Of a stretch of DNA of 64,000 nucleotides, positions 583 to 60,836 are shown in pieces; position 1 is the stretch's first letter, and the number at the start of each line of letters is the position of its first letter. Source of the stretch: Eledone cirrhosa (taxonomy: Eukaryota). Below the pieces are notes generated by a model. That model was given only the letters and a program-made list of their open reading frames with translations. It searched no databases and was not told the origin of the DNA. The stretch spans positions 24,552,001-24,616,000 of the forward strand of contig OZ024750.1 in the NCBI GenBank assembly GCA_964016885.1, read 5' to 3'. The position numbers were made by a program, and so were the translations under genes.

Positions 583-1034
583 GAAAAGAGTCAGGACACC
601 GACGGATGAGCGCCAGCCGTCTCGACAGAAGAAATTTTGATTGACAGGTGGAGAACGAGAAGAATCAAGAAGTGGGCAACCATGAGTGGCTAGAAATACC
701 GGTGACGTGTACAATTCTTGATCACTCATGGAATGACAACAACAGGATCTAAATCAACAAACGAAGAAATTCGATGTTAAAGGACGATAGGAAAATCTGC
801 TTCGTAGAATCGAGACGTATCCGACGACCGCGCGATTTCAGAGTCAGGTTTGATCACCATATCGATCGTGCCTCGACCTGGTCGCCGGAGAAACAATTGT
901 AATATGTCCAATAATTCCTTTCGTCGAACACTGATTCTTTTTTTTTTTCTGTGATATCATACTCTGCTCTACGAGGGCATTGAGTGCTCATACGGCCTAC
1001 CGCATACGGACGCTTTAAGCATCCAACACCAATT
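583..1034 (+). mobile_element. (TA)n-embedded Penelope-like terminal fragment (hammerhead + 3' tail)
   Basis: Flanked by (TA)n; hammerhead at 814-908; tail motif ATACTC..GAGTGCTC; related copies at 1081-1285 (-) and 11597-11808. Confidence 0.55.
814..908 (+). ncRNA. Type I hammerhead-like ribozyme, variant core CCGACGA, enlarged stem II
   Basis: Stem I GACGTAT/ATATGTC; core CCGACGA; stem II CCG-CGCGA..TCGC-CGG; GAAAC-AATT-GTA with palindromic stem III. Confidence 0.6.
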
Positions 1035-1391
1035 ATATATATATATATATATATATATATATATATATATATATATATATAGGTATTGGAGGTGCAAATT
1101 AATTGCGTTCGTAGGCGTTATGCCAAGATGAGCACTCGATGCTCGTGGGGAGCAGAGTATCAATAATAACATATAAGTGAATAAAGAATCAGTGTTGCAT
1201 CATATACATATTTAATTATATATTACATATGTTTCACTGCTGATCAGCTCGAGGAACGATCGATTAATGATTGATCCTGACCCTGGGAGAGAGGGAGATT
1301 AAACATTTAATTGCATCCTATCACATTAACGATTTGAAAAATAAATAAATAACGTACAATAATGTGAAATACAAAATGAGGTTGCCTAAAG

Positions 1392-1533
1392 CTGCGGCCG
1401 CCAAACTTTCGGACCTCACGGACCACTAAATTCATAATTTTAAATCCCACGGACCACTAAATGAATTTTTTTAAAACAGATAAACACATTAACATTTTTC
1501 TGCGGACCACCAACCACTGGTTGGCGACGGCTG
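1392..1533. mobile_element. hAT (Charlie-like) MITE
   Basis: Degenerate TIRs CTGCGGCCGCCAA / TTGGCGACGGCTG; related 5' end CAGTGGTCGCCAAACTTTCGGACC at 13922. Confidence 0.55.
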
Positions 1534-1743
1534 GCCTTAAACACAAAGCTGGTCACTTCTCTATTTTGGCTTCATAACTTTGCTAAGGTAAGGCCGAAGA
1601 AGAAAATATGTTGTCGACATAGCCGGGGTGTCTCCGAATTATTGTTCGATACAGTACGGAATAACTTCTGGTGAATTGTGCCAAAAATACGTTGTTCGAT
1701 TCTCAGCAGGAATTATTTAATTTCACAGTAAAATTTTCTTTAC

Positions 1744-2372
1744 CCTATCTTAATATAATAAAGGGGGGAGTGCGGGACTACGTCCTGAATATATATTTTT
1801 TTATCCCCTTAGTAAAATAAGTTAGATTACTTTGAATAAATAATGAATGAATATTACATAAATTTCGTTGCTGTTGATTAAACATAAATATTCTTATATA
1901 TAATAATTGCTTATTTTAAGATTCACTTCTTTTAAAATTTTCAAATGTCAACACTTCCGGTAGGCGCCCATTATATCATAACACTTATTACATTGCTTAT
2001 GTTAACGTTCATATATTTGCATCATTATATAAGGTTGACTTTGCCTTTCATCCTTACGGAGTCGATAAAATAAAGTACCAGTAATGCACTGGGTAATTGC
2101 TGGCCTTGTGCCAAAAGTAGAAACAATTATATAAGGTTTAAATTTCTGTCGCTAATTTTCTCCTTTTTCGCTTTCATAAAATTTCTCCGTAATGCAGTTT
2201 ATATATAATATCGTCTTTTAGAAATTGTTTCATGGATTACTTTACTGATTACAGAAGAAAGTGCAACACAGAGTCCCTTCAACTTTTGTGCATATTCTCA
2301 ATTACGATTTTATTTGATGTATTATATCTACATGCTAGCAGAAAACTACCTGAAGGATGGTTTTTCTGCTAG
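1744..2372 (+). mobile_element. Non-autonomous Helitron with nested SINE (2032-2130)
   Basis: Homologous to 56442-56923; 3' hairpin ending in CTAG|T. Confidence 0.6.
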
Positions 2373-2500
2373 TTCTGTTAATTATAAAATCGCACAAAGG
2401 CACATGTAAAAATGTAAACATAACATCTTATATGAAATAAAATTACAATAGAGCATTACAATTCTGAACAAAAATACTAAAATCAATGTTAGAAACTTAC

Positions 2501-56923: not shown

Positions 56924-57096
56924 TTTGTATAATTAATTTAAATGTACGTATAATATTTTCTTTCGCTCAACCAATATATCTCTAAATATCTGTACTGCGT
57001 AGCAGCATTGGGGAAATATCCAAAACGGCGGAGAAAAAGGTATAGTGTTATGACTTGTGACATGATTTGACGGGGATGAGTGCGGATTGTGTAGCA

Positions 57097-57428
57097 CAGA
57101 GGTTCTCAAGCGTTTTGAACCACCACCCACCTCACGGCCACGTAAAACCCTCAGCGCTCCCAACCCTATTTCTAGAGAGATCTGCCTACATACAAATTGT
57201 AAATTGTAAACAATATATTATAAATTAAATCGTTAATTTATATATAATAAATAATATAATATATACTATATATGAATAAATATTATATATTTTTTATTTT
57301 ACTATATTTATATATAATATCATTTGATATTTAATATACTATTATATCCTCTTCCCTTAGGCCGTAGCGCCTCCTAGACATTCTCAACGATCCCTGGAGG
57401 GCGGTAGCACCCAATTTGATAACCTCTG
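57097..57428. mobile_element. hAT (Charlie-like) MITE
   Basis: TIRs CAGAGGTTCTCAA / TTGATAACCTCTG and a perfect 8-bp TSD GTGTAGCA. Confidence 0.85.
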
Positions 57429-59539
57429 GTGTAGCAGTAAATACGAGCTCAACATTTTCTTGGTAAAGTCAGAGCAAGAAGTATCAAAGACAAGGATTGT
57501 CAGTTTGGCAATCTGTACGTTGAAATTATTTTACTAGGGAGAATGTAACTGGGAGGGGGTGTACATGCTAACCTAAGCACCGGTCCTGAGTACCCACACA
57601 TCGGGAGAATTGGGGTTTATGATTAAGAAAAGCGAATGAGCAAGATGAAATTTGCTACGAGTGCCCAAGTCGGAATTTCAAAACTATCTCTAGCAGAAGA
57701 ACAAATATTTCTTTGAAAGCTCAAACGTAGAGTTATGACAAATCCCTGCTCTGTCCTGTTTATTAGAGGCAGGTTCCACGAAATGAAATCACAAACAGTA
57801 AATTAGGAGTAATTCCAACATGGAAAAGAAGGAAAGAAAAGGGGCTCTTAACTTCTGAGACAAGAATACGCTATAGCTTATATGCTTTTTGCATATAAAA
57901 CAACTGCTGGAGATGTGTATTTGCATCTGTGACAAAGATATCGTTTATGCCATTATATCTCTCTCTATTATGAAGGTACATAGCTTAGTGGTTAGAGCGT
58001 CGGGCTTACAATCGTGAGGTTGTGAGTTCGATTCTCAAACCGAGCCTTGCGTTGTGTTCTTGAGCAAGACACTTTATTTCATGTGGCTCCAGTTCACTCA
58101 GCTGTAGAAATGAGTTGCGGCGTCAATGGTGCTAAGCTGTATTGGTCTTTGCCTAACCTAATATCGGTGGTGCGGAGAGGGGAGACTGGTATGCATGGGT
58201 GACTTCTGGTCTTCCACGAACAACCTTTCCCAGACTTGTGCCCCGGCGGTGCAAATTCCATTGTCATTCGTTACCAAAGAGGCTCTTTACCTTATTATGA
58301 ATCACACTAAGTTTGTGGTACTGCTAATTAACCCAAGTTAGTCAAGCTCACGCTATATGGAACTGAGCATATCCAACAGATGTTTTATACACAAAAGTAT
58401 ATAAACTAATAGACTGTTCTTATCTCAGAACCACGTGAGTAAATGTCACCGATAATGGATAAAAATCTAGAAACAATTCGGTGATAGGTGTAAGATGATC
58501 ACTGCTTAAAATATTCATAGCGAGATTTTTATGTTTATTATACATAAACATGTCATATATGTTTTTATATATACCTCTGTTATGAATCCTGCTACGTTAG
58601 TTTATATATATGTAAATTTATTTATGTATATATATGTACACTCACATACATACATATACTGTATATATAAATATATATATATTATATATATAAATATATA
58701 TATATAAATATATATATATATATATATATATATATATATATATATATATATATATATATATATATATATATATATATATATATATATATATATATGTATG
58801 TATGTATAATGCACGCACACACACAAACATATATATATATATATATATATATGTTCTTATGCACACACACACACACATACATATATATATAAGGATCTAT
58901 ATTGGTAAACTCCAATATAACCATACATATACTATATACATGTATAATGTACGCACACACACAAACATATTTATCTATACATATTCTTATGCACACACAC
59001 ACACACACACATACGCACACACACAAACACACACACATACGCACACACACAAACACACACGCATATATATATATATATACATATTTATACACAAACACAA
59101 TTTATTTATAGGAGATTCTTTAAATGGTCTTTGATGGGTTTTTTTATACCATTATTAAGTTTACAAAATTAACATTTCCCATTATCATTTTTTTATCTCT
59201 ATTATTCCAGTATGAATTTTGCATAACGTATTTATATTCTCATATTATTTGTTATATATGCAATCATTCTTATATCATCACAATAAACATTTCCTTTGTC
59301 ATCTATTTAATAAAGGCGCATTACTATTGATGTTTCCACTCCAACATTTTGCGGTTAATTTGATGGTGTTTTCTCATTTTGTTTTCTTACAAAACATTTA
59401 TTATATTCGTGTAGTACACATACTTTATCTATATAAATATTCTTTGATATATTTTGATATATTTTGATATAATTTGATATAATTTGATTTTTTTTATAAA
59501 CATTTACGTAAACTCACGTACACGCACACGCTTACGCAC

Positions 59540-60496
59540 AAGCACGCACACAAATATATATATGTGTGTATATATATATATATATATATATATATATATA
59601 TATATATATATATAAAATAAAGTTAAATAAAAGTCAAATGATTAAAATTTAGCTTCGTTTATATATATATATATATATATATATATATGTGTGTGTATGT
59701 GTATGTATATATATGTATATATATGTGTGTATATATATATGTGTGTGTGTGTGTATATATATATATGTATATCTATATATATATTTATATCTATATATAT
59801 ATATACATACATATATATATATTTATATATATACACATATTTATATATACATATATATATATATATATATATATATATATATATATATATATATATATAT
59901 ATATATATATACATGTATATATATATATATATACATGTATATATATATGTATATATATATACATATATATGTATACATATATATATATATATATATATAT
60001 ATACATGTATATATATATATATATACATGTATATATATATGTATATATATATACATATATATGTATACATATATATATGTATATATATATACACATATAT
60101 ATGTATACATATATATATATATATATATATGTATATATATATATATATACACATACATATATATGTATATATTCACATACATATATGTATATATATATAT
60201 ATATATATATATACATATACATATATGTATATATATATGTATATATATATAGACATATATATATATGTATATATATATAGACATATATATATATATAAAT
60301 GTATATATATATATATATACATATATATAAATGTATATATATATATACATATATATATATAAATGTATATATATATATACATATATATATATGTATATAT
60401 ATATACATATATATATATACATATATATATATATACATATATATATATATGTACATATATATATACATATATATATATATACATATATATATATAT
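59540..60496. repeat. Long degenerate (TA)n microsatellite field (one of many)
   Basis: Similar fields at 25665-26050, 32030-32590, 33560-33912, 34324-34650 and 55040-55668; (CA)n at 450-545, 45160-45650 and 51585-51677. Confidence 0.95.
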
Positions 60497-60836
60497 GCCG
60501 TTGGAGTTAAACATTTTCCTATTACCCCTCTACTGCCCAGAGTATTGAGTACTCTGGTGCGTTATGATCCATCTGGTTCCTTACCACACTTCCTTCGTTA
60601 TATATATATATATATATATATATATATATATATATATATATATATATATATATATATATATAGGAAAAGAGTCAAGACCCCGACGGCTGAGCTCCGGCCG
60701 TTTCGACAGCTAGATCCGAACAGTTCGGCTCTAGCTGTCAAATCACGGGAACTGAGTCGACGGGATCCTGTCTTTTTTCCTATTACCCACTCTACTACCA
60801 TAAGTATCGAGTACTCTGGTGCGTTATGGTCCACCA
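60497..60836 (+). mobile_element. Two (TA)n-embedded Penelope-like terminal pieces (family of 5326-5530)
   Basis: 60497-60600 is tail only; 60661-60836 is an imperfect hairpin plus tail with ACTC..GAGTACTC. Confidence 0.55.

Follow-up and report, generated by a model that had tools for sequence, protein, structure and literature searches.

Penelope-like elements (PLEs) of the Hydra clade, including Hydra-1_Obim of Octopus bimaculoides, are defined by RWK/RWx and DKT motifs, a C-terminal GIY-YIG endonuclease with a CxCX5C linker, CxxC and CxH, insertion into (TA)n and a canonical hammerhead ribozyme (Craig et al. 2021, PMC8557442; here and below, statements on published systems refer to the parts of the cited sources drawn on). 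For endonuclease-containing (EN+) PLEs, insertions with a head-to-head inverted copy, a tail at one end and a palindrome at the junction have been described, and TATA and initiator-like words were noted in a pseudo-long terminal repeat (pLTR; PMC8557442; Pen2a_Av, PMC3846280), both as in the elements reported here. Pairs of hammerheads on opposite strands, 100-700 bp apart, had also been noted (PMC4209133; bioRxiv 10.64898/2026.07.22.740005), and elements, ribozymes, inverted copy and tail are all published (PMC8557442, PMC4209133, PMC3846280, PMC2377424, PMC13282606, bioRxiv 10.64898/2026.07.22.740005). We analyzed the palindromes in a 64-kb stretch of the Eledone cirrhosa genome (positions 24,552,001-24,616,000 of OZ024750.1; hereafter the window, within which feature positions are counted) together with their relatives at other loci. 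Judged by motifs and layout, these palindromes are head-to-head 5'-truncated pLTR ends of Hydra-clade PLEs in (TA)n. Each probably represents one insertion, in which two primings on the two cut (TA)n strands would have given two short cDNAs that were then joined, in most families probably after running off the capped 5' end of the RNA.

A preliminary description of the window had read the palindromes as termini or derivatives of many PLE families targeting (TA)n, and the genome-wide frames agreed with it: six of the eight families behind its nine palindromes were tied to reverse transcriptase (RT)/GIY-YIG frames with Hydra motifs, which the tails enter or lie downstream of, so that the tails link to PLEs rather than to DNA transposons. 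In the window itself tblastn gave no match to an RT or GIY-YIG open reading frame, as that description had also stated. The DKT motif was present in the frames of families C, D, E and H, and in these four the tail passes directly into the start of the DKT-bearing frame (locus L105 for C, L140 for D, L216 for E). The family B frame contained both RWK and DKT; family A had RT and endonuclease upstream in L221, with YxDD the only RT motif in the part of the copy scanned; the family D endonuclease lay upstream in L226, and RT and endonuclease of family H were found in L331 and L333. GIY-YIG with the CxCX5C linker, CxxC and CxH was complete in A, B and H and represented by linker, YIG and CxH in D, and these C-terminal motifs were not seen in C and E, where only the N-terminal part of the frame was reached. 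A contiguous coding frame was looked for in families J and G and none was found; F, G, I and J share their architecture with the frame-linked families. Pfam returned 0 families for two frames and PDB 0 matches, and the 250 relatives (~700 aa, E<=1e-20) had no informative names, the assignment to the Hydra clade being made by motifs; the coding frames were close to Hydra-1_Obim and to an Argonauta protein. The 3' ends of arms abut (TA)n in the window and at other loci, and a target site duplication is hidden because the target is (TA)n. In long family H insertions (1-5 kb; L331-L342), too, a tailed arm stood at one end and a tail-less arm at the other; RT and endonuclease lay between them.

The motifs, the short single frame, (TA)n and the hammerhead are thus like those of the published Hydra elements (PMC8557442). 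Six short family motifs were absent from the supplement text of that paper, in the part drawn on, which indicates other families, and there are at least ten families here, with thousands to over 15,000 arms each. A first look at dispersed families returned 3136 candidates for A, 2522 for B, 701 for C, 1710 for D, 473 for E, 302 for G and 1958 for J, and a family H 28-mer occurred 15,310 times in the genome; family H was located by pattern search, a DNA search with three short AT-rich queries having missed even the window. The tails, at 68-183 nt in the seven mapped families, also differ from the 30-40 bp described there.

These lengths reflect two fixed 3' ends after the ribozyme, proximal and distal, which were found in each mapped family, the sequence between them being the tail. 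The proximal and distal ends lay 72 and 241 nt from GAAA in family A, 72 and 255 in B, 41 and 120 in C, about 68 and 158 in D, 41 and 109 in E, 63 and 143 in J, and 56 and 143 in H (a related D-like family was left out, reducing the D arms from 109 to 89, and 829 of 830 short family B rows were dropped as (TA)n matches of a poor anchor). A distal end was combined with a proximal one in 152 of the 172 head-to-head pairs, which is the PLE insertion plan of an inverted 5'-truncated copy with a tail at one end; 3 were distal with distal, 0 proximal with proximal and 17 unclassified; in family H, 22 of 23 pairs were distal with proximal. The preliminary description had proposed that the ribozyme fold sets where RT stops and that the cDNA then snaps back, a claim mostly unsupported by the arms. 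The tail-less arm reached more than 10 nt further 5' than its partner in 27 of the 152 pairs (the tailed arm in 31, with 94 within 10 nt), and in family B it can exceed the tailed arm by more than 1 kb (L055, L056); snap-back is ruled out for these longer tail-less arms, since a self-copy of the tailed cDNA cannot outreach the 5' end of its template. Nor can it make the tailed partner of a tail-less cDNA, because a self-copy cannot gain a tail, and it cannot produce the 18 insertions composed of a tail-only arm and a ribozyme arm, whose partner ended at the proximal site in 15. A self-copy would further have no reason to stop at one fixed proximal base unless recut there. Of the 149 pair junctions, 8 were blunt; the arms overlapped by 1-10 nt in 61 and by more in 4, and extra bases stood between them in the others (1-10 in 56, more than 10 in 20); none joined two families, and one cross-family junction was present in the window (583-1033).

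The 5' ends were mapped in 661 arms of seven families (A, B, C, D, E, J and H), and six of the seven had a one-sided 5' edge at a family-specific base. Relative to the core, the edge lay at -13 nt in A, -6 in E, -35 in J, -69 in H, -81 in D and +41 in C, so that the pile-ups are not fixed with respect to the ribozyme. The number of ends per base, first for 5 nt at the edge and then for the 50 nt upstream, was 1.0 and 0.14 in A, 9.8 and 0.14 in C, 1.6 and 0.14 in D, 5.8 and 0.18 in E, 3.4 and 0.08 in J, and 7.4 and 0.18 in H, where a single base was the start of 26 of 83 short arms. Stem II contained 0.17-0.92 ends per base except in C (5.2); this was below the edge in all seven families, with no stem II excess in six of them and a genuine pile-up confined to C. 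In four of six families the edge fell on the A of an initiator-like word, against a background of 0.012 per base, and a TATA box preceded the edge by 30 nt in A and 29 nt in E. A prediction made before family H was viewed was borne out for the initiator. A fixed cDNA length was rejected as the determinant of the edges, as the edge-to-proximal-site distance varies from 63 to 182 nt, and the hammerhead cleavage site was rejected as the arm 5' end: only 18 of 563 arms lacked the 12 bases preceding it, several of those being spurious matches, which suggests that cleaved ribozyme products were rarely copied in this sample.

Untemplated G has been read as cap copying in L1 and SVA (PMC4859970). At the base before the family H edge genome-wide, G occurred 2111 times and A or T 2151 times beside 6885 instances of the parental C (G in 2111 of 4262 non-parental bases), compared with one G and 315 A or T (1 of 316) at a control site 21 nt inside; in family D, the non-parental bases before the edge comprised 62 G and 65 A or T (62 of 127). 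In the local family H sample, G preceded 13 of 26 arms starting at the edge and 8 of 49 starting elsewhere (p=0.003), and 12 of 20 versus 7 of 41 among arms free of partner overlap. All 20 fetched matches with G were junction ends rather than a parental variant, and in some the G alone separated the (TA)n from the start base. The G excess before the H and D pile-ups suggests the mark of a copied mRNA cap.

On the preferred reading, transcription would start within the pLTR, a short distance before the hammerhead, and the enzyme would cut both (TA)n strands and prime from the distal site on one of them and from the proximal site on its partner. Copying of the 5' pLTR of the RNA would run for 60-340 nt before meeting the cap, much as retroviral strong-stop DNA is made, and microhomology or small inserted patches would then serve to join the two cDNA ends head to head. 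On this view the arms include the hammerhead because the transcript start lies on one side of it and both initiation sites on the other. Tail-only arms fit a single RNA molecule, and full palindromes require two copies or strand displacement. More broadly, we lean towards the view that PLEs make strong-stop DNA, with a dimeric enzyme, both target strands, two internal sites in the 5' pLTR and run-off at the mRNA cap.

For EN+ PLEs, self-priming has been proposed, perhaps with an antisense template, whereas the present data point to two primings on sense, capped RNA (PMC8557442; PMC3846280). In the in vitro system of PAc Poseidon, the tail is bounded by a pair of internal RT start sites (Frangieh et al. 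2024, PMC11167929), matching the two 3' ends found here, and, as in the favored model, both target strands are cut and extended and hammerhead cleavage is not needed; PAc belongs to another clade, and in the part of that paper drawn on its 5' junctions were neither mapped nor tied to a transcript start. L1 twin priming resembles the present case in using two primers to give an inversion and in the untemplated G that reflects full-length copying to the cap, but L1 primes at the poly(A) end and has no duplicated arms, whereas here both starts are internal and the ribozyme region is mostly duplicated (PMC4859970). Like the ribozymes reported here, the minimal type I hammerheads known from PLE pLTRs and from non-LTR (long terminal repeat) retrozymes have a palindromic stem III and an unpaired base before stem II (PMC4209133; bioRxiv 10.64898/2026.07.22.740005); unlike non-LTR retrozymes, the present copies form no tandem arrays and their ribozymes belong to autonomous families.

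Masked self-BLAST recovered eight of the nine inverted repeats of the preliminary description at the positions it had named, with arms 80-98% identical; the ninth (60661-60780) gave no self-BLAST match, and its arms align at about three quarters identity. A tenth palindrome, absent from that list, was found at 55393-55486. With the flanking parts of the arms included, the features were as follows.

5326..5530, tailed arm on the minus strand (to 5326), tail-less arm on the plus strand: family C palindrome; both arms begin in the 3' strand of stem II, and for that reason the core is missing.
10502..10933, tailed arm on the plus strand: family A palindrome with a whole hammerhead (core 10611) and a long stem II; the tail-less arm is inverted and contains an internal jump.
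10977..11281, tailed arm on the minus strand, tail-less arm on the plus strand: family D palindrome; whole hammerhead by eye, cores 11187 (plus) and 11168 (minus).
11590..11807: family J non-palindromic insertion, a tail-less ribozyme arm on the minus strand and a tail-only piece on the plus strand (11777-11807).
583..1033: hybrid, an inverted family C-like end (583-628) directly abutting a tailed family J arm (629-1033).
26596..26777: family E palindrome whose arms meet within the catalytic core.
31243..31404: family F palindrome; the arms meet in stem II, and the plus arm has the tail.
31434..31974: family G palindrome, short tail on the minus arm; older, copies 75-85% alike.
33917..34321: family H palindrome, both arms with a whole hammerhead, cores 34224 (plus) and 34102 (minus); its center falls just within the putative transcript start, with the core about 60 nt further downstream.
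52721..53225: family B palindrome, young (97-99%); both arms have tails and meet at core/stem II, an unusual junction for this family.
55328..55486: family I palindrome with a one-sided tail; abundant, with 75 local matches; descriptors recognized no hammerhead in it.
60663..60833: diverged family C palindrome, partial tail.

Every palindrome lay in or beside (TA)n, as the preliminary description had said, and its other statements on layout stood in part. The tail was one-sided in eight of nine, the exception being 52702-53244 with both arms tailed; an outward-reading GAAA-stem III-UH half was present in at least one arm of eight of nine and missing at 31481-31962; and, as a correction, the palindromes at 5404 and 60661 are one family. 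A center near the core or stem II held for about seven of the nine window cases, not as a fixed relation genome-wide. The hybrid at 583-1033 is a two-family head-to-head junction such as would be expected from two RNAs at one break, a nested insertion being possible as well. Other features of the window were a solo arm of a further hammerhead-bearing family (5060-5290, core 5115 plus) that shows the two-end plan at other loci, an old diverged J-like arm (1082-1290) and a solo family C tail (60516-60598), each sharing a (TA)n tract with younger insertions. By eye, the tails of families A-F, H and J have a short self-complementary word in common. Unrelated to the ribozymes were inverted repeats made of microsatellite sequence (27337-27690 and 42239-42574); a minisatellite occupied 40789-42174 (36-bp unit, 38.5 copies, 93% matches), and a repeat of about 190 bp resembling a short interspersed element was present in about 10 copies, including 3997-4194, 14386-14523, 40480-40676, 54550-54739 and 56659-56843.

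Hammerheads were commoner in the window than in shuffled sequence. A strict descriptor found 2 whole type I hammerheads compared with 0 in 30 of 30 shuffles, and a relaxed one found 5, whereas of 40 shuffles 36 gave 0 and 4 gave 1 (mean 0.1). Stem III was palindromic in five of the nine palindromes; when each of these arms was shuffled 300 times, 1-5% of the shuffled versions also had a palindromic stem III. No hammerhead family was among the matches listed from an Rfam scan (150 of 192), which were microRNA-like only and on simple repeats. The core was canonical in A, D, E, H, J and F, variant in B (L054, minus strand near 8460) and C (L105, plus strand near 1442), and degenerate in G, where 31481-31962 showed by eye a core-stem II-GAAA without a proper UH. 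In the variant core, U3-A8 seems to replace the C3-G8 pair. No retrozyme-like array, in which every tandem unit has its own whole hammerhead, was found in the window; copies were single arms or head-to-head pairs.

Several observations weigh against two primings with run-off at a cap. Family B had broad 5' ends without a sharp edge, and the TATA box predicted 30 nt before the H edge was not there. Locally sampled arms of five families, H not among them, showed no enrichment of G (4 of 22 versus 49 of 249), and neither did family C genome-wide (214 G, 1692 A or T and 4793 C; 214 of 1906 non-C), where the A/T class probably includes a parental variant and the 4793 parental matches imply that the local C sample under-counted long copies. 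Some of the G's in H could stem from partner-arm overlap or short repeated patches (L372-L376, L380). Six families were sampled by similarity to tailed queries, and H was sampled by position. Later one-sided deletion could account for some differences in arm length, and fits the 18 tail-only insertions less well.

The remaining contrary points are those that RT stalling at the hammerhead fold, followed by fold-back and self-copying of the cDNA, would accommodate: the edges of A and E are the first base of ribozyme stem I, family C ends spread through the 3' strand of its long stem II (93 in 18 nt) together with its lack of a G excess, and arms of the same insertion were more alike than random arms in A, C, E and J (four of six families; about equal in B and D). 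This likeness points to one source per insertion and does not discriminate between the models. PLE palindromes have also been proposed to self-prime (PMC3846280), and the window centers near the core or stem II lie where fold-back would place them. Given the varying edge-to-core offsets, the stem II counts, the longer tail-less and tail-only arms and the cap-like G in H and D, we regard fold-back as improbable in general; in family C (5404, 60661) a stop in the long stem II, as the preliminary description proposed, is possible.

A smaller chance still is given to two primings on an RNA whose 5' end was set by exonuclease trimming to a folded or protein-bound domain, with no promoter. Edge bases of E and J pair with downstream sequence in predicted folds, no TATA box was found at the edges of H, D or J, and trimming may apply to C; set against this are the initiator-like context at four of six edges and the G excess in H and D, which trimming leaves unexplained because a trimmed RNA end has no cap. 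That the palindromes spread as self-contained units, like miniature inverted-repeat transposable elements (MITEs) or transcribed hairpins with an inherited center, seems very unlikely. Some centers do recur at unrelated loci (e.g. L314 and L351; L110 and L117) and the family C sample was dominated by short palindromes, yet most centers differ even among 99-100% identical copies, 141 of 149 junctions were not blunt, the recurrent centers fall on short self-complementary words at the edge, and non-palindromic stubs start at the same base. A MITE or DNA transposon of fixed length with terminal inverted repeats was rejected on the variable 5' truncation, the asymmetric ends and the RT link. Assembly fold-back artefacts might be suspected from the near-perfect or perfect symmetry of young copies and because three public contig sets do not cover the family A junction of the window. 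They have a negligible chance, as substitutions and jumps distinguish the arms, the arm ends fall on family-fixed bases at thousands of loci, and the tails are one-sided; contigs from three runs of one sample, one of which shows another family A head-to-head junction, were not used as evidence.

A literature search, with subscription papers mostly outside its scope, returned no paper tying PLE junctions to a capped start, strong-stop DNA or twin priming. The elements and their architecture are known; what is new is additional families and a testable answer to an open mechanistic question. Annotators should be aware that the stubs resemble microRNA hairpins or MITEs. With its tens of thousands of young junctions, the genome allows the models to be told apart and yields base-exact predictions of transcript starts. 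If true, a strong-stop step in PLEs would explain the inverted pLTR, the one-sided tail and the rebuilding of the pLTR at each insertion, and PLE transcript starts would be readable from genome sequence alone.

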